Source of the DNA: an uncultured Acidimicrobiia bacterium
Lineage (GTDB): Bacteria; Actinomycetota; Acidimicrobiia; Spongiisociales; UBA5794
Length of the DNA stretch: 64,000 nucleotides
Assembly: GCA_963792895.1 (NCBI GenBank)
Contig: CAWBYA010000008.1
Span: 373,495 to 437,494, forward strand
Direction of reading: 5' to 3'
Shown here: positions 24,327 to 43,820 of the stretch, one piece after another
How positions within the stretch are numbered: position 1 is the first letter of the stretch
Layout: each line of letters begins with the position of its first letter
Position numbers and translations under genes: made by a program
The notes under the pieces: model-generated
Database searches by the model: none
What the model was told of the DNA's origin: nothing
Seen by the model: only the letters and a program-made list of their open reading frames with translations

Positions 24327-24360
24327 CAACGGACTCGCCGAAGGCGAGTACGGTAGGACG

Positions 24361-24433
24361 TAGCCCCGACCGGATTTGAACCGGCGTTACCGCCTTGAGA
24401 GGGCGGCGTCCTAGGCCCCTAGACGACGGGGCC
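24361..24433 (-). tRNA. tRNA-Glu (anticodon CTC)
   Basis: reverse complement folds as cloverleaf: acceptor GGCCCCG/CGGGGCT, D-arm GTCT..GGAC, anticodon stem CCGCC/GGCGG with loop CTCTCAA, T-arm GCCGG TTCAAAT CCGGT; no encoded CCA. Confidence 0.85.
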
Positions 24434-24501
24434 AGGGGAGACGGATATTAACCGCCGACGAGATGCCAACTGCGCAGCTGTGCCGCCGGCGCCCCGCGGA
24501 G

Positions 24502-24573
24502 CTCGGGGGGGAGGACTCGAACCCCCAACGACAGGACCAGAACCTGCTGTGTTACCGATTACACCACCCCCGA
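24502..24573 (-). tRNA. tRNA-Gln (anticodon CTG)
   Basis: reverse complement: acceptor TCGGGGG/CCCCCGA (U1-A72 typical of tRNA-Gln), D-arm GTGT..ACAC, anticodon stem GCAGG/CCTGT loop TTCTGGT, T-loop TTCGAGT. Confidence 0.85.
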
Positions 24574-37529: not shown

Positions 37530-38045
37530 ATGGAGGGGTGGTTCTTCGTCGTCGCTGCGCTCTTGATCGGCGCCGGCTTCCTGAAGGTTCGGGACCCTGC
37601 GCCCACGCAGGGCGCCCTCGCCGCGGCATCACTGCCGTCGGGGGCATGGCCGGCGCTCACCCTCGGTGTCGGCGAGATCGTCGTCGGCTCGTACGGGCTG
37701 CTCGCCGGCGGACGGCTCGGCGGTGTCGCGGTTGCCGCCATCTACGGAGGATTCGCGGCTTTCGTTCTCGTCGCGCTGCGACGGAAGCTGCCACTGCAAT
37801 CGTGCGGCTGTTTCGGCAAGGACGACACCCCCCCGTCGCCGGTCCATGCCGTGACCAACGTTCTCGCCGCCGTGGGCGCCATCGGGTACGCACTCACGTC
37901 TGCGCCGTCCCTGCCGGAAGTGATCGCCTCCCAGCCGGGATGGGGTTTCCCCTACCTCGTGTTCCTCGCAGTGGGCGTCTACGCGCTCTACCTGATGCTC
38001 GCCGAGCTGCCCCGGCTTCGCCTGATCGTCCGGGGGCCGGCGTGA
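37530..38045 (+). CDS. MauE-like (methylamine-utilisation protein E family) membrane protein
   Basis: 171 aa, four TM helices, conserved CGCFG motif between TM2 and TM3. Confidence 0.65.
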   Translation: MEGWFFVVAALLIGAGFLKVRDPAPTQGALAAASLPSGAWPALTLGVGEIVVGSYGLLAGGRLGGVAVAAIYGGFAAFVLVALRRKLPLQSCGCFGKDDTPPSPVHAVTNVLAAVGAIGYALTSAPSLPEVIASQPGWGFPYLVFLAVGVYALYLMLAELPRLRLIVRGPA

Positions 38046-38866
38046 GCACCCGGCTGGTTGAAGCAACCGCCGGCTTCCTCGGTCGAAGGACCAGCAGGCG
38101 CGGCTTCCTGCGTCGCGCGGCCATCGTCGGCTCGGCGCTCGCTGCCGCCCCCGCAGCGTATGTCCTCCGTCCGACCACCGCGTATTCGGCGATCGTCAAG
38201 ACCTGCAGCGACTGCCCGTCCGGATCGCGATGTTGCGGCGGATACACCGAGTTCTGCTGCGCCATGTCCGGGGTCAACACGTGCCCTCCGGGCAGTGTCA
38301 TCGCAGGCTGGTGGCGGGCCGAGGGCTCCGGCTACTGCGATGGCGGGTCCCGCTACTACATGGACTGCAACACCGCAGACTGCGGGGGCTGCGGCTGTGG
38401 GTATTCGGGCACGTGCTCGGACTCATGCGTCGACTGCAGCTGTGGATGCGCCAACAACGACTGCAACCTGAGGCAGGCGTGTTGTGTCCGGTTCCGGTAC
38501 GGCCAATGCAACCAGCACATCGAGTGCGTCGGCCCGATCATCTGCCGGGTCGTCACCTGCGTGCCGCCGTGGGAGTGGGATTCGTCGTGCTCGAAGGCCG
38601 ACGCCCGCGACGACAACACCCGATTCCACGATGCGGCATGTCTCCGGCCGTCGCTCGTGCGCCAGGCGTACCCCGGCGTCGTGTCGGGCGCCACCTTCGA
38701 GCTGCGCGAGTCACTCAGCACAGGCATCCCTACGGAGAAGTACGACTACGGGCTGCCGGGCGACATCCCAATCATGGCGGACTGGTCCGGCTCGGGCCTG
38801 GAGACGGCCGGACTGGTGCGGGGGCGCGCCATGGGGCCCTGGACGCTGGTGCGCTCACGTGGCTGA
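38042..38866 (+). CDS. Tat-exported cysteine-rich protein with C-terminal FG-GAP repeat (possibly 5-prime part of a longer frameshifted gene)
   Basis: GTG start overlapping mauE-like stop; twin-arginine signal SRRGFLRRAAIVGSALAAAPAAYV; 26 Cys in about 150 residues; C-terminal YDYGLPGDIPIMADWSGSG repeat. Confidence 0.5.
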   Translation: MSTRLVEATAGFLGRRTSRRGFLRRAAIVGSALAAAPAAYVLRPTTAYSAIVKTCSDCPSGSRCCGGYTEFCCAMSGVNTCPPGSVIAGWWRAEGSGYCDGGSRYYMDCNTADCGGCGCGYSGTCSDSCVDCSCGCANNDCNLRQACCVRFRYGQCNQHIECVGPIICRVVTCVPPWEWDSSCSKADARDDNTRFHDAACLRPSLVRQAYPGVVSGATFELRESLSTGIPTEKYDYGLPGDIPIMADWSGSGLETAGLVRGRAMGPWTLVRSRG

Positions 38867-38874
38867 TCCGCCAA

Positions 38875-39363
38875 GTGCCCGGGCCAGGCGACCCCGACCT
38901 CGTCGTGGAGTACGGAACCGCAGGCGACGTGCCCGTCGCCGGTGATTGGAATGGCGACGGCGTCGACACGATCGGGGTCGTCCGGGGCAACCGCTGGCTG
39001 CTGAGCAACCACAACGCCGGGGGCACGGCAGACATCGATATCGTGTTCGGCGAGCCCGGCGACATCCCTGTGGCGGGCGACTGGAACGGCGACGGTGTCG
39101 ATACGCCGGGCGTAGTCCGGGGAACACGGTGGATACTGCTCAACGGCTTCGACCCAGCGGGCCCTCGGGTCGAATTCGACTTTGGGCCTGCCGACGGCGT
39201 CCCCATCGTCGGCGACTGGACCGGGGCAGGGCGCCATCTGCCGGGGCGCTTCGTCGCCGGGTCTTGGCAGCTTCGGCTGTCGCTGTCGGACGGACCGGCG
39301 AACAGCACCTTTTCGTTCGGCGACCCGAACGGGGTGCCGGTGGTGTGGGGCCGGGTGCCATGA
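38875..39363 (+). CDS. FG-GAP repeat protein (likely continuation of preceding gene across a 1-nt frameshift)
   Basis: three tandem units GD-x-PVAGDWNGDGVDT-x-GVVRG-x-RW; no signal peptide of its own; first in-frame GTG at 38875. Confidence 0.45.
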   Translation: MPGPGDPDLVVEYGTAGDVPVAGDWNGDGVDTIGVVRGNRWLLSNHNAGGTADIDIVFGEPGDIPVAGDWNGDGVDTPGVVRGTRWILLNGFDPAGPRVEFDFGPADGVPIVGDWTGAGRHLPGRFVAGSWQLRLSLSDGPANSTFSFGDPNGVPVVWGRVP

Positions 39364-40070
39364 CCGCTCTCGTCGTGTTGGAAGCGGTCGTGATCGTGCT
39401 GCTCGTCGTGCTCGTCGCCGGGCTGCTGCGCAGCCACGCCGAGATTCTCCGCAGACTCCACGAGCTCGGCGCGGGCGAAGCCGAGCCAGACCAGGCTGCG
39501 GCGATGGTGGCCGCACCACGCGGCTCGCAGCCGCTCGCCGCCACCGAACTGGCCGGGGTCACGCCCGGCGGGGGCGCCGCTTCAGTTGCGCTTGCCGGGT
39601 CGCGCGGTCTGGTGCTCGTGACGTTCCTCACGTCCGGCTGCTCCTCGTGCCGTCTGTTGTGGCGCGGGCTCGCCAACCCGATTGCGATGCCGCGCAAAGA
39701 CATCCGCACCGTGGTCGTCACGAAAGGCCCAGAAGAGGAGAGCCCGGCCACGATCCGCAACCTCGCCCCTTCGGATGCGATCGTCATCATGTCCAGTCCT
39801 GCGTGGGATGCGTTCCGGGTGCCGGTCGCGCCCTATTTCGCCCTCGTCGACGCCGGGCGCGGCCATGTCATCGGCGAGGGTGCTGCGGGATCGTGGCCCC
39901 AAATCGCGGAACTCGCCGGACGAGCACTGGGTGACGCCACCGGCGATTCCCGTCTCCACGCCGGGACGGCACAACGTCTCGAGGACACCGACGAAGAGCT
40001 GCGCCGGGCCGGTGTCGAGCCCGGCGACCCGAGCTTGTGGGCGCCGCCATCGAACGGTGGTGGACGGTGA
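39360..40070 (+). CDS. TlpA/MauD-like membrane-anchored thioredoxin-fold protein
   Basis: N-terminal TM helix, redox motif LTSGCSSC, thioredoxin-fold spacing; ATG overlaps upstream stop (ATGA). Confidence 0.6.
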   Translation: MTALVVLEAVVIVLLVVLVAGLLRSHAEILRRLHELGAGEAEPDQAAAMVAAPRGSQPLAATELAGVTPGGGAASVALAGSRGLVLVTFLTSGCSSCRLLWRGLANPIAMPRKDIRTVVVTKGPEEESPATIRNLAPSDAIVIMSSPAWDAFRVPVAPYFALVDAGRGHVIGEGAAGSWPQIAELAGRALGDATGDSRLHAGTAQRLEDTDEELRRAGVEPGDPSLWAPPSNGGGR

Positions 40071-40144
40071 CGATCACATCGCTGGGAGTGCTCGTCGCGG
40101 TGTTCGCAGCACTCCGATCGCATTGGTCGCCGTGAGGGGAGTCG

Positions 40145-40729
40145 ATGCTCTCGAGCATCCACCCGCTCGGCGAGCGGGCACGTCACAACCGATGGGTGCT
40201 CACGGTGACTGCCTTCTCGGTGGGCGCTATCGGAGCGGCCGGCGCCGTCGGGGCCGTCCTCGGCATCGCGGGTTCGTACGTGCTCGGCGGACCGACGGGT
40301 AGAACGGTCGCCATCATCGGGGTGGCGGCTCTTGCGGCGGCGGGCCTCGACCTCCTCGGCGCCCGGCCGCCCGGACCCCACCGCCAGGTCAACGAACGCT
40401 GGATCGGCGCGTATCGAGGATGGGTGTACGGCGCAGGATTCGGCGCCCAACTCGGTGCGGGGGTTGCCACGTACATCGTGACATGGGGTGTGTGGGTCGT
40501 CCTCGCTGCCGAGGTGGCCAGTGGATCTGGTGCTGCAGGGGCTGTGGTCGGGCTTGCGTTCGGTGTTGGCCGGTCGCTCCCCGTCGTCGCGGGCCGGTGG
40601 ATCAACACGCCGAGTCGACTGGGCTCCTCGTCGGCTGTCATGCGCCGGCTCGCAGGTCCTGCGTTCCGCCTGATGGCCGCCGCCACTGCCGTTGCAGGCA
40701 TCGCCGGGATCTTCGCGGGAGTGGTGTGA
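40145..40729 (+). CDS. polytopic membrane protein, unknown function
   Basis: 194 aa, Gly/Ala-rich, 4-5 predicted TM helices, no Cys. Confidence 0.45.
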   Translation: MLSSIHPLGERARHNRWVLTVTAFSVGAIGAAGAVGAVLGIAGSYVLGGPTGRTVAIIGVAALAAAGLDLLGARPPGPHRQVNERWIGAYRGWVYGAGFGAQLGAGVATYIVTWGVWVVLAAEVASGSGAAGAVVGLAFGVGRSLPVVAGRWINTPSRLGSSSAVMRRLAGPAFRLMAAATAVAGIAGIFAGVV

Positions 40730-40733
40730 CGTG

Positions 40734-41231
40734 GTGCGCCTGAACAGCGGCGGTGTCGGGTTCGAGTTGCCGTCAGGGTGGGAGGGTCAGATCGACCCGG
40801 GCTCAGGCACATGGCGAGAGTCCCCTCGCATCGGGACGACGGAACCACTCCCCGAGACGCATCCGGACGGAGCGGTGCGACGCGTTGTCGCCCACGTCGC
40901 CAACTTCCCGTTGCCCCCTGGGCGAGGAGACTTCGGCAACGGGGCAGTCCAGACGATGCGAGCGGGCGACGTCTTCGTCACATTGTTCGAATACGACCCG
41001 GAATCGGCGCGGACGCCGCTCTTCCGCCACGAGGGACTCCCCGAGGTCGGCGCCGGCGACTTCGAACCCGCCGCTCTCCAAAAGCCGGTGCCGGGCGGCT
41101 CCGCGATGCAGCGCTTCTTCCGCACCGCCGGGCGTGCGTTCTGCCTCTATGTCGTCGTCGGCAGCCACATCGACCGCGCCGACGTCGTGCCGACGATTCG
41201 CGAACTGTTGGCCGGCGTGGAGATCACGTGA
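40734..41231 (+). CDS. hypothetical protein
   Basis: GTG start immediately after upstream stop; 166 aa; strong third-position GC bias. Confidence 0.4.
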   Translation: MRLNSGGVGFELPSGWEGQIDPGSGTWRESPRIGTTEPLPETHPDGAVRRVVAHVANFPLPPGRGDFGNGAVQTMRAGDVFVTLFEYDPESARTPLFRHEGLPEVGAGDFEPAALQKPVPGGSAMQRFFRTAGRAFCLYVVVGSHIDRADVVPTIRELLAGVEIT

Positions 41232-42229
41232 AGCGGTGGGTCGCGCTTGTCGTGGTCGGAGCCCTCGCCACCGCCGTCGCGGCAGGCCCCCTCGTTGCGG
41301 AGCCCGCTGAAGCGGTCGTGGTGGACTCGCGGTTCACGGACGACGACTGGAACATCCACGAGCCCAACATCAACGCCATCGCCGCGGCGAGCATCACCTT
41401 CGGCTGCAATCCACCGACCAACGACCACTACTGCCCCGATCGCCCGGTCACCAGGGGCCAGATGGCGGCTTTTCTCACCCGTGCATTCGGCTACACCGAG
41501 CGGCTCGCCGACCCCTTCACCGATGACGACGGATCGATCTTCGAAGCCGACATCGAACGTCTGGCCGCAGCAGGCGTGACGCTCGGCTGCAATCCGCCTG
41601 CCAACACGAGGTACTGCCCGGACGATCCAGTCTCGCGGGCGCAGATGGCGAGCTTCCTCGCTCGTGCCCTCGACCTCCAACCGTTGGCGGCCGGGCCGTT
41701 CCAGGACATCTCGGGCAACATCCACAGCTTCACCATCAACGCAATCGCCGCCGCCCGCATCACCTATGGATGCAATCCTCCGGCCAACGACCTCTACTGC
41801 CCGAACGACCTCGTGACCCGCGCCCAGATGGCGAGTTTCCTGGCGCGGGCGCTCGACCTGTCGCCGATCCCGAGCCGCCTCTCGCTCCGCCCGGGATCGG
41901 CATGCGACCGGGTGCGCACCTCGTGCACTGCGACGCTCGCCATCCCCGCCGGCCGCACATTCGAGCTCCGCGAGGGCTGGTACAACGTGCTCCCGTTTGC
42001 CCCGGGCGAGGAAGCCGCCTTCAGGGGGCCGGATACCACCTTCACTGCGACGCTCGACGGGACGCCGCTGTCAATGGCGACACTCGACACCGCATCCACC
42101 ACCATGGCAACGCGTGAGTGGCACGCTGTGATCGCAAGCGTCGGTGCAGGGACCCACGTGCTACGCGGCGTCTGGCAGTGGGACGGCACCACCAACCTCA
42201 CCGTCGTGGTGACCATCGTCGCCGGGTAG
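41228..42229 (+). CDS. secreted protein with three SLH-like (S-layer homology) domains
   Basis: signal peptide; three approximately 60-aa repeats F-x-D-x4-H/F-x3-I-x2-A/L-A-x3-T-x-GCNPP-x-N-x2-YCP-x-D-x-V(T/S)R-x-QMA-x-FL-x-RA; GTG overlaps upstream stop. Confidence 0.6.
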   Translation: MKRWVALVVVGALATAVAAGPLVAEPAEAVVVDSRFTDDDWNIHEPNINAIAAASITFGCNPPTNDHYCPDRPVTRGQMAAFLTRAFGYTERLADPFTDDDGSIFEADIERLAAAGVTLGCNPPANTRYCPDDPVSRAQMASFLARALDLQPLAAGPFQDISGNIHSFTINAIAAARITYGCNPPANDLYCPNDLVTRAQMASFLARALDLSPIPSRLSLRPGSACDRVRTSCTATLAIPAGRTFELREGWYNVLPFAPGEEAAFRGPDTTFTATLDGTPLSMATLDTASTTMATREWHAVIASVGAGTHVLRGVWQWDGTTNLTVVVTIVAG

Positions 42230-42366: not shown

Positions 42367-43338
42367 ATGGAAGCCCTTCACCCCGCAGGGAACGGATCCT
42401 CGACCGGGGACGAGGGCTCCGCCACGATGATCGACTGGCTGATGGAAGGGGATCCGGCCATCCGCTGGCAGACGATGCGTGACCTCGCCGACGCCGCACC
42501 GGCCGAGGTCGCTGCCGAGCGGGCACGGGTTGCGACGGACGGCTGGGGTGCGAGGCTTCTCGAGCTTCAGGACGACGAGGGAACCTGGGCCGGTGCGCTC
42601 TACAGCCCAAAGTGGACATCCACGACGTACACGCTGCTTCTCCTGCACCGGCTCGGCCTACCTCGCGGCCACCCCCAGGCCCTGGCAGGCTGCAGGGTGC
42701 TCTGGGATCGGGCCAAGTGGTTCGACGGCGGCCTCACGCTCGCCAAGACGATCAGGGAGCCGGAGACCTGCATCACCGGAATGCTGCTGCAGCTGGCGGC
42801 TACGTTCGGCCACGACGACACTCGTCTCGACGAGGCCGCTGCATGGCTCATCGGCCAGCAGCTTGCCGACGGAGGCTGGAACTGCGAGTCGATTCGCAGC
42901 GGCTCGCGCCACGGGTCGTTTCACACGTCGATCACGGTGCTCGAAGCACTGGACGCCTATCGGGGGGCCGACGGCGGGATTGCGGTTGCCAGGGCGATGG
43001 AGCGAGGCCGCCAGTTCTTCCTCGACCACCGGCTCTACTGCTCGCATCGAACGGGCGAGGTCGTCGACACGACCTTCACCCGCTTCCCGTTCCCACCGCA
43101 GTGGCACTTCGACGTCGTCCGCGGACTCGAGCACTTCCTGACGCAAGGCGTCGCACCCGACGAGCGGCTCGCCGGCGCCGTCGATGCCGTGTCACGAGCC
43201 CGTCGCCGCGACGGCAGGTGGCCCGTCTACCGGGCCTACCCGGGACGTCGATGGTTCCTGCTCGAACAGAATGGGCCCGGGCGCTGGTCGACGCTCCGTG
43301 CGCTCCGGGTGCTGCGCTGGTGGGGCGGCGCCGGCTGA
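42367..43338 (+). CDS. prenyltransferase/squalene-cyclase-like alpha/alpha-toroid repeat protein
   Basis: 323 aa; about six 45-50-aa repeats carrying Q/D-x2-DGGW motifs (LQDDEGTW, WFDGG, QQLADGGW, RRDGRW). Confidence 0.5.
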   Translation: MEALHPAGNGSSTGDEGSATMIDWLMEGDPAIRWQTMRDLADAAPAEVAAERARVATDGWGARLLELQDDEGTWAGALYSPKWTSTTYTLLLLHRLGLPRGHPQALAGCRVLWDRAKWFDGGLTLAKTIREPETCITGMLLQLAATFGHDDTRLDEAAAWLIGQQLADGGWNCESIRSGSRHGSFHTSITVLEALDAYRGADGGIAVARAMERGRQFFLDHRLYCSHRTGEVVDTTFTRFPFPPQWHFDVVRGLEHFLTQGVAPDERLAGAVDAVSRARRRDGRWPVYRAYPGRRWFLLEQNGPGRWSTLRALRVLRWWGGAG

Positions 43339-43370
43339 GCCACCGGACGCTGCCCCGCTACGCTCGCCCG

Positions 43371-43820
43371 ATGCGTCGCGTTGTTGCAGCCGGATTCGGG
43401 GTGGGTTGGATCCCTCGCCGGCTGTGGGGCAGCGACAATGGTGCAGGCACGTTTGGGGCGGCCGTAGGAGGCATCATCGGCATCGCCTCCTGGCTTGGCG
43501 CATGGTGGGTGGGCCTCATCATCGCCGTAGCCGCAATTGCCCTCTCGGTATGGGCATCCGGCCCGGAAGGCCGTGGCGGGGCAGATCCGGGTTGGGTGGT
43601 GATCGACGAGGTTGCAGGAGCCTTGGTCGCCGTCATCGGGCTCTCCGGTGTGGCGTGGGCCGTCGCCTGGATCGTGGCCAGGTTGGCCGACATCTTCAAG
43701 GTGCTCCCCGGCGTCGGGCAGGCAGAAGGTCTCCCTCCGCCGTGGGGCATCACTGCAGACGACGTTGTCGCCGGGCTGTACGGCTTGGCCGCCGGCTGGC
43801 TCGTCACCTGGCTCCTGTGA
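43371..43820 (+). CDS. pgpA: phosphatidylglycerophosphatase A
   Basis: 149 aa; DPGWVVIDEVAG signature, hydrophobic C-terminal half. Confidence 0.7.
   Translation: MRRVVAAGFGVGWIPRRLWGSDNGAGTFGAAVGGIIGIASWLGAWWVGLIIAVAAIALSVWASGPEGRGGADPGWVVIDEVAGALVAVIGLSGVAWAVAWIVARLADIFKVLPGVGQAEGLPPPWGITADDVVAGLYGLAAGWLVTWLL

Follow-up and report, generated by a model that had tools for sequence, protein, structure and literature searches.

A conserved Acidimicrobiia operon that may constitute a Mau-type oxidative-folding system for a Tat-exported cysteine-rich protein, with a candidate selenocysteine in its MauF-like member

The window analysed here is a 64,000-nucleotide stretch from an uncultured Acidimicrobiia bacterium (GenBank assembly GCA_963792895.1, contig CAWBYA010000008.1, positions 373,495 to 437,494 of the forward strand), and its plus strand carries six genes, at 37530-42229, that form a conserved operon as judged by tblastn of the window proteins against fetched loci. 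They encode a MauE-like membrane protein, a precursor with a twin-arginine (Tat) leader and a cysteine-rich domain, and a CxxC protein resembling MauD, followed downstream by a MauF-like membrane protein, a conserved protein of 166 residues and a wall protein with three SLH repeats (Table 1). We interpret this operon as a probable Mau-type oxidative-folding system coupled to its own clients, and its MauF-like gene as a candidate selenoprotein gene. A preliminary description of the window had treated 37530-40070 as the whole unit and had read four translationally coupled genes within it. That interval is too short, as the conserved operon reaches 42229, and it contains three plus-strand genes (those for the 171-residue membrane protein, the 440-residue precursor and the CSSC protein); two of the proposed overlaps stand, the GTGA at 38042 and the ATGA at 39360-39363, where the start of the mauD-like gene overlaps the precursor stop. 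The G+C content of the window is about 67-70 %, which makes mechanically produced lists of its open reading frames (ORFs) crowded.

Table 1. Features of the operon in window coordinates, with the evidence behind each assignment.
Feature	Position	Strand	Evidence
mauE-like gene, 171 residues, four-helix membrane protein	37530..38045	+	PF07291
Single gene for a 440-residue precursor (Tat leader, Cys-rich domain, five-bladed propeller), in two frames in the window	38042..39363	+	homologues, repaired translation
Long twin-arginine leader, residues 1-50 (conserved n-region, RTSRRGFLRR, h-region)	38042..38191	+	TIGR01409
Cys-rich domain, 26 Cys here, 21-22 family-invariant	38192..38656	+	family alignment
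Predicted five-bladed beta-propeller with blades of GDW(N/T)GDG type, resembling FG-GAP and the tachylectin lectin fold	38657..39363	+	
G5 homopolymer, one G short relative to homologues (frameshift)	38820..38824	+	sibling contigs L086, L087
mauD-like gene, 236 residues, N-terminal membrane helix and thioredoxin fold, CSSC	39360..40070	+	hhalign against MauD
mauF-like gene, 220 residues with TGA as selenocysteine, DsbD_2-superfamily membrane protein	40067..40729	+	hhalign against MauF
In-frame TGA, motif WSP-U-GES, candidate selenocysteine codon	40133..40135	+	alignment to Cys forms
Two hairpins after the TGA, candidate bacterial selenocysteine insertion sequence (SECIS)	40141..40177	+	RNAalifold, synonymous constraint
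Conserved 166-residue protein, no signal peptide	40731..41231	+	in 65/80 loci and L085
Secreted SLH protein, three SLH repeats and a C-terminal domain, GTGA overlap with the preceding gene	41228..42229	+	PF00395

A scan of species-representative genomes yielded at least 586 loci with a gene for a related protein, of which 80, from different Acidimicrobiia species genomes, were fetched; all fetched loci together amount to 1.18 Mb and carry labels of the form L0xx. The genes for the MauE-like, 440-residue and CxxC proteins lay side by side in one orientation in essentially all of them (tblastn), a co-occurrence far above chance that bears out the earlier proposal of a coherent gene set; all three were carried by 80/80 loci, and the set with its translational coupling was still kept at loci down to about 50 % identity. 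The downstream genes were found less often, in 65 of the 80 loci for the 166-residue protein family (about 150 residues), 58 for the SLH protein and 49 for the MauF-like protein. Junctions were mostly 4-nt or 1-nt overlaps (68/77, 56/73 and 44/55 loci), the first of these counts being the 4-nt overlap between the mauE-like and Cys-rich genes and the last the overlap between the genes for the 166-residue and SLH proteins. The genes that flank the operon in the window (E1 dehydrogenase subunits, an aminotransferase and PGDH) were common only to its closest relatives, and the flanks are not conserved. A variant cluster, L085, groups, in this order, MauE, a stand-alone Tat/Cys-rich protein of 196 residues, a MauD-like protein, a 166-residue-type protein and a MauF-like protein of the Cys form; such rearranged variants (L085 3683-6651 and L084 3612-6654) adjoin large FG-GAP/Tricorn/PD40 and amidase/LysM wall proteins. 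At a distant paralogous locus of about 50 % identity (L002 10001-12581), Cys-rich/propeller and MauD-like genes occur with no adjacent MauE, among glycosyltransferase, ABC-2/Wzt polysaccharide-export and transposase genes.

The preliminary description had divided the precursor into a Cys-rich Tat protein and a separate FG-GAP protein, and these proved to be one ORF. When queried with the 274-residue product of the apparent 'gene 2', which ends at 38866, the search gave 840 relatives, nearly all from Acidimicrobiia metagenome-assembled genomes; among the 120 relatives listed, nearly all were about 440 residues long, with a few fragments, and none had a precomputed Pfam domain. Homologues read unbroken from '...GLETAAIVRG-ARHGALD..LTW.IRQ' into the supposed FG-GAP gene. 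The window is broken inside CGGGGGC, and one added G yields the 440-residue protein. Two contigs from other samples (L086 and L087), 99.8 % identical to the window over the operon, both possess the extra G. The same contigs, which belong to the species of the window, contain further split genes (L086 16968-19725; L087 2627-4302 and 6384-7291), namely PEP carboxylase in pieces of 838 and 86 residues, a peptidase S9 in three and an E1 dehydrogenase subunit in two, so that indel errors are probably common in such assemblies. Long-read homopolymer errors are expected to give such split genes. Given the extra G in near-identical contigs and the other split genes in such assemblies, the window frameshift is most likely an assembly error and at most a strain variant. 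The GTGA coupling proposed between the two supposed genes does not exist.

We observed clear family support for the first gene product, whose match to PF07291 (Pfam) scored 55.1 bits against a cut-off of 27 (E=1.3e-14), with neighbouring MauE homologues at other loci likewise annotated PF07291. With this support and the co-occurrence described above, neither of the two conditions that the preliminary description gave for its own refutation applies. The consensus of 78 MauE-like homologues retains SCGCFG..DTPP together with a Lys in helix 1 and a Glu in helix 2, in agreement with the initial reading of a MauE-family membrane protein with a CGCFG motif. A recent preprint (Gonzalez et al., bioRxiv 10.64898/2026.03.05.709764) presents MauE as a disulfide oxidase of the DsbB kind, active through a CXC motif and able to replace DsbB in E. 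coli, gives as its hallmarks the CXC followed by Phe-Gly, the helix 1 Lys and the helix 2 Glu, and proposes a thioredoxin-like partner. The window protein fits these hallmark residues, all of which are conserved, and shares with the MauE of the preprint the four membrane helices and the proposed partner from the thioredoxin family. The MauE described there differs in being a generalist, with MauF, Tat clients, Actinomycetota and selenium not discussed, whereas the gene here is translationally coupled to a specific putative client.

For the remaining Mau-like proteins we compared profiles of the Acidimicrobiia homologues with the Paracoccus denitrificans mau cluster, mauFBEDACJG (locus L083). 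The CSSC protein aligned with P. denitrificans MauD at an hhalign probability of 91 % (E=1.1e-6, 101 columns), with its CxxC placed on CPVC. Neither cysteine of this motif, C94 or C97, varies among 31 homologues, and the N-terminus shares the MauD architecture of a helix followed by an R..L..HE segment. Ten PDB profile matches were weak (E 0.03-1.5), every one of them to a thioredoxin fold, and Thioredoxin_2 matched weakly in 12 of the 31 homologues (best E 0.0097). The earlier view of a membrane-anchored thioredoxin-fold protein resembling MauD/TlpA is thereby upheld, with the fold assigned by profile only.

The mauF-like gene starts in a GTGA over the mauD-like stop at 40067, 78 nt 5' of the public annotation, which begins at 40145 and gives 194 residues. 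Its homologue profile aligned with P. denitrificans MauF at a probability of 96.5 % (E=9.8e-10, 128 columns), and PF13386 (DsbD_2) matched 16 of 29 homologues weakly (best E 1e-5); the NCBIfam MauF model did not match the window protein, and P. denitrificans MauF itself has no Pfam match. In common with the CcdA/DsbD family (DsbD_2, PF13386), the MauF-like protein crosses the membrane with several helices and carries a redox residue where the first helix ends, in a motif of the 'SPC' type; it differs in having one conserved redox residue, Cys or putative selenocysteine (Sec), where CcdA/DsbD have two. Because this residue is single, the classical two-Cys relay does not apply as such.

Closer inspection of the conserved 'gap' of about 70 nt that separates the mauD-like stop from the annotated mauF-like start revealed an ORF of 20-24 codons (22 in the window) that starts in the ATGA/GTGA overlap with the mauD-like stop and ends ...RSxWSP-TGA. 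In 48 of 50 loci this upstream ORF is conserved and shares its frame with the downstream MLSSIHPLGERAR..., and protein conservation is seen on both sides of the TGA, with ...RSxWSP before it and GES-MLSSIHPLGER after it. All 46 distinct sequences have TGA here, compared to 72-79 % TGA among stops in the same loci that are not constrained by an overlap. The TGA falls on the Cys of WSPCG, which is encoded by TGC in L033 and appears as NWSPCGES in a sister clade of 216-223-residue proteins and as TWSPCGYS in P. denitrificans MauF; full-length Cys forms include P0429, P0432 and six others sequenced. The three codons from the TGA to the annotated ATG vary as codons do (GGN, GAR, TCG).

Two hairpins follow the TGA, GAUGCU-N4-AGCAUC at 40144-40159 and CCGCUC-GGN-GAGCGG at 40163-40177, the GGN loop of the second lying 33 nt after the UGA. 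Synonymous sites in the stems are frozen (TCG 46/46, AGC 44/46, CCG 46/46, CTC 44/46, GAG 46/46 and CGG 46/46), in comparison with a codon entropy of 1.2-2.4 bits at loop positions and at conserved residues elsewhere in the gene. The RNAalifold consensus contains 14 pairs, every change in which is wobble-compatible, the few stem changes being G-C to G-U, and in L033, a Cys form, synonymous changes abolish the two hairpins. Neither hairpin matched Rfam, in which bacterial SECIS elements are poorly covered. Since an in-frame UGA, Cys homologues and a downstream stem-loop are the standard computational criteria for a selenoprotein, we regard the MauF-like proteins as a candidate new selenoprotein family in which the UGA is predicted to encode Sec.

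It is also conceivable that the TGA is an ordinary stop, such that a 22-residue membrane peptide and a 194-residue protein are made by re-initiation with GGAGAG as Shine-Dalgarno sequence, the MauF-like function no longer needing its Cys. The GGNGAR followed by TCG ATG does resemble a ribosome-binding site and start codon, public gene callers predict the 194-residue product, and sel genes were not found in the window or the fetched loci. We nonetheless consider this split improbable, as it leaves unaccounted for the invariance of the TGA relative to free stops, the frame shared by the two ORFs, the alignment of the TGA with the WSPCG Cys of homologues and MauF, and the codon-like variation in the third base of GGN; moreover, hairpin 1 masks the ATG, and neither hairpin persists in the Cys form. 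Sec machinery has in addition been reported within the class, in another Acidimicrobiia order (bioRxiv 10.64898/2026.04.03.716425).

The search for a Sec apparatus used tblastn of E. coli SelA, SelB and SelD against the window and all loci, and its matches were to EF-Tu-type GTPases only. The one SelB match inspected, in L085 (6648-9399), lies beside an APS kinase and a PAPS reductase and looks like CysN instead. An EF-Tu-type GTPase matched by SelB occurs near the operon in twenty loci (for example L079, L069, L046, L025, L036 and L054), where it precedes the MauE-like gene by about 1.5-5 kb. Further TGA sites of the read-through kind were sought in the window with a crude screen; none was convincing, and the thresholds missed the 40133 site too.

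On the putative client, the precursor leader matched the Tat signal model TIGR01409 (NCBIfam) at 18.6 bits against a cut-off of 16.7 and is likely cleaved after AYSA. Exactly 26 Cys lie in residues 55-200, so the twin-arginine signal and approximately 26 cysteines that had been ascribed to the GTGA-overlapped gene at 38042 are both present. The family alignment holds invariant GWW, FRYGQC, GPIxCRVVxC and PPW motifs in addition to its 21-22 Cys. An exhaustive profile search placed the module in 474 representative clusters (50 % identity) with varied C-terminal partners, in proteins of 187-1137 residues, where it nearly always follows directly on a leader of about 44 residues; the identifiable partners are wall-binding (CWB2 three times, LGFP six times). 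The domain itself had no sequence match in Pfam or NCBIfam (E<=0.1) or in the PDB, and a PDB profile search with the whole precursor family gave a sole match, of the Tat leader to NosZ.

The precursor was further compared with MauA. With leaders included, its N-terminal ~90 residues aligned with the MauA precursor at an hhalign probability of 96-97 %, of which score the n-region contributed 24.2, the Tat core 35 and the Cys segment 26.3. Column shuffles gave 9.1+-2.1 for the n-region and 13.4+-3.0 for the Cys segment, with a maximum of 25.8 that the observed segment exceeds marginally; hand-entered generic Tat leaders mostly scored 16-26, with one outlier at 42. These scores indicate a leader that is specifically MauA-like and a first Cys segment that is suggestively similar to that of MauA. 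The mature domain by itself had no PF02975 match in Pfam and no PDB profile match at E<=10, and against a 31-sequence MauA alignment it reached a probability of 10-12 % (P about 3e-3), unchanged with a broader 129-sequence profile. The segment matched in that alignment, C-x5-C-x-DG..CC-x7-CPPG (..W), is collinear with MauA, and the invariant GWW is aligned with the quinone Trp57 and a non-Trp residue with Trp108, in an alignment of low confidence. We accordingly do not assign the mature domain to the MauA family, with PF02975 absent, a probability of 10-12 %, no second tryptophan of the tryptophan tryptophylquinone (TTQ) cofactor and no MauB or MauG.

These similarities could be taken to mean that the Cys-rich domain is a divergent MauA homologue bearing a Trp-derived or other protein-derived cofactor, and that the fused protein is a new wall-anchored dehydrogenase. 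MauE, MauD and MauF each have a homologue here, the leader and first Cys segment run collinear with MauA, with GWW on Trp57, and the stand-alone form has 196 residues as compared to 188 in the MauA precursor. We hold this to be very doubtful, since the family match and second TTQ Trp are missing, the profile probability of the mature domain is low, the Cys segment barely exceeds its shuffles, no MauG, MauB, amicyanin or cytochrome occurs in the operon or conserved block, and the C-terminal partners are wall-binding modules. Neither mauB nor mauG was found in the window operon or among the neighbouring genes of homologous loci, consistent with the initial statement that no dehydrogenase heavy subunit is recognisable; with no PF02975 and about twice the Cys, the domain is likewise different from, and more Cys-dense than, the MauA light subunit, as had been proposed.

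We also weighed whether the Cys-rich domain binds metal ions or clusters, or acts as a toxin or as a product resembling RiPPs (peptides made on the ribosome and modified after translation), with the Mau-like proteins giving thiol protection instead of disulfides. Metal binding would explain Tat export, which is often a mark of cofactor-loaded proteins; MauA, however, is likewise Tat-exported and is disulfide-rich, and no ferredoxin-type or metallothionein-type motif or family match appeared in Pfam, NCBIfam or PDB profile searches. An effector would have a precedent in Streptomyces, where MauE/MauD clusters with Cys-rich precursors have been proposed as RiPP clusters (PMC7794033), yet the domain here spans 150 residues and is fused to wall-anchoring modules, and the conserved block lacks protease, transporter and immunity genes. 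We judge this whole group of explanations highly improbable.

The C-terminal half of the precursor was modelled as a five-bladed propeller with pLDDT (predicted local distance difference test) values of 85-97. FG-GAP-type fungal lectins head its Foldseek list, and structure comparison places it nearest to tachylectin-2 and the UmbA4 lectin. At 10-16 % identity to tachylectin-2, the Streptomyces UmbA lectin propellers and fungal PVL/AAL2, the likeness is one of fold. Neither PF01839 nor PF13517 matched the window protein at E<=0.1, and no FG-GAP domain is precomputed for the 120 homologues listed. For the FG-GAP repeats of the preliminary description there is at most a similarity of fold and no Pfam match, the best structural match being the five-bladed tachylectin-2.

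At the distal end of the operon, PF00395 (SLH) matched 29 of 29 SLH protein homologues (best E=1.9e-22), and three repeats can be made out in the window protein. An invariant Cys pair occurs in every repeat and a further pair in the C-terminal domain, giving four conserved pairs. The 166-residue protein had no Pfam, NCBIfam or PDB match; it was compared with MauJ and showed no MauJ likeness.

Collectively, we favour a dedicated, translationally coupled Mau-type oxidative-folding operon that acts with its clients outside the membrane and uses Sec in its MauF-like member, and assign this reading a probability of about 0.62. In such a system the 440-residue precursor would be exported by Tat through its long MauA-like leader, and the anchored MauD-like CxxC protein would form or reshuffle about 11 disulfides in the 22-Cys domain. 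The MauE-like protein, with its DsbB-like CGC, would then re-oxidise the MauD-like protein and pass electrons to the quinone pool, a direction of flow that we infer. A third redox-active residue, in WSP[C/U]G, would be supplied by the MauF-like protein, as Sec in the lineage here, and would probably serve fast thiol/selenol exchange or a reducing (isomerising) arm. The five-bladed lectin-like propeller, presumably by binding glycans, would hold the mature protein on the cell wall, with the co-encoded SLH protein and its four Cys pairs as a second wall-anchored client or a partner.

The resemblance to methylamine-utilisation clusters lies in the MauE (Pfam), MauD (hhalign) and MauF (hhalign, WSPCG motif) proteins beside a small Tat-exported Cys-dense domain, and in an unusually long conserved n-region before RTSRR-FL followed by a first Cys segment collinear with MauA. 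The disulfide-maturation logic of mau clusters, as first suggested from MauE and MauD, is with the added MauF homologues and MauA-like leader stronger than proposed. The operon differs from the mau cluster in having no MauB, MauG, amicyanin, MauJ or regulator, in a Cys-rich domain that has no PF02975 match, about twice as many Cys and no conserved second TTQ Trp, and in the fusion of this domain to wall-binding modules, be it a lectin-like propeller or another, unlike MauA. The host moreover belongs to a monoderm actinobacterial class, and its MauF-like gene has UGA in place of Cys.

Several observations weigh against the dedicated-operon interpretation. The MauF-like gene is absent from about 40 % of fetched loci and so is not obligatory, and MauE may be a general oxidase of the cell instead of a dedicated one (bioRxiv 10.64898/2026.03.05.709764). 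The window MauD-like protein matched neither the NCBIfam MauD model nor Pfam AhpC-TSA or Redoxin at E<=0.1, leaving the Redoxin/AhpC-TSA profile check suggested at the outset without a Pfam match, whereas true P. denitrificans MauD does match AhpC-TSA and Thioredoxin_2. Both the MauD-like and MauF-like assignments came from profile-profile comparison, the Pfam thioredoxin and DsbD_2 matches being weak, and by the positive-inside rule the topology of the MauD-like anchor is ambiguous, with P. denitrificans MauD arranged alike. With respect to Sec, the hairpin stems are conserved without covariation, since they are invariant, and no tRNA-Sec (ARAGORN) and no selA, selB or selD was found in either the 64-kb window or the fetched loci (1.18 Mb).

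A housekeeping role would make the MauE-like and MauD-like proteins a general replacement for DsbB/DsbA that has no dedicated client and happens to be encoded next to abundant envelope proteins containing Cys. This agrees with the argument that MauE is a generalist oxidase which mostly occurs without MauA (bioRxiv 10.64898/2026.03.05.709764), and the SLH protein of the same operon also has Cys pairs, so there would be more than one client. We find it rather unlikely, however, in view of the 4-nt overlap that joins the mauE-like and Cys-rich genes in 68 of 77 loci, the recurrence of the same gene set around a stand-alone Cys-rich protein in the rearranged cluster L085, the constancy of the operon block amid changing flanking genes, and a precursor leader that resembles that of MauA, the sole known dedicated client.

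A partial precedent exists in Streptomyces, where mauE (and mauD) adjoin precursors with at least 8 Cys in candidate RiPP clusters found by decRiPPter (PMC7794033). Both cases place actinobacterial MauE/MauD outside methylotrophy beside Cys-rich predicted products. The Streptomyces products are, in contrast, short predicted peptides with no Tat/propeller fusion, MauF or Sec reported, a likeness that we draw by description only. The impression that this arrangement had not been described therefore stands in part: MauE/MauD beside a Cys-rich product in Actinobacteria (PMC7794033) and the oxidase role of MauE (in the preprint) are already known, while we did not find described, in the literature searched, all of MauE, MauD and MauF together with a non-MauA client that bears a MauA-like leader, the Cys-rich family or the UGA form of MauF. 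A MauF selenoprotein, or an Acidimicrobiia system of this kind, was likewise not found in that literature, and the portion available of a 2026 review of prokaryotic selenoproteins (PMC13188914) contained no MauF or DsbD_2-type entry.

Under the dedicated-operon interpretation, the MauE/MauD/MauF trio would travel as a unit with a Tat-exported Cys-dense client far from methylotrophy. The locus supports the view of MauE as a disulfide oxidase and argues that some MauE systems are client-dedicated. To our knowledge MauF has had no assigned function since mau clusters were sequenced; replacement of its single conserved Cys by Sec in one lineage would mark this residue as redox-catalytic, and current gene callers truncate the selenoprotein candidate. 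The Cys-rich proteins form a large unannotated family of about 840 proteins, spread over the 586 or more loci and 474 clusters noted above, and may represent wall-anchored cysteine-knot proteins of an abundant soil and marine class. A more far-reaching idea, which we regard as quite improbable, is that MauF/MauE/MauD are a portable 'cysteine-knot maturase' of ancient origin that first served clients other than methylamine dehydrogenases, with the Cys-rich domain a true distant relative of the TTQ light subunit that has a redox function or a protein-derived cofactor at the wall, and with Sec revealing MauF as the catalytic exchange centre.

Two features of the window lie beyond the operon. Immediately 3' of it, at 42427-43820, are genes for a 303-residue protein with faint prenyltransferase/squalene-cyclase-type repeats and for a PgpA-like protein; they are common only to close relatives and are for this reason probably not part of the system. 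The sole Rfam (gathering threshold) and ARAGORN matches in the window are a tRNA-Glu(CTC) and a tRNA-Gln(CTG) at 24360-24573 on the minus strand.

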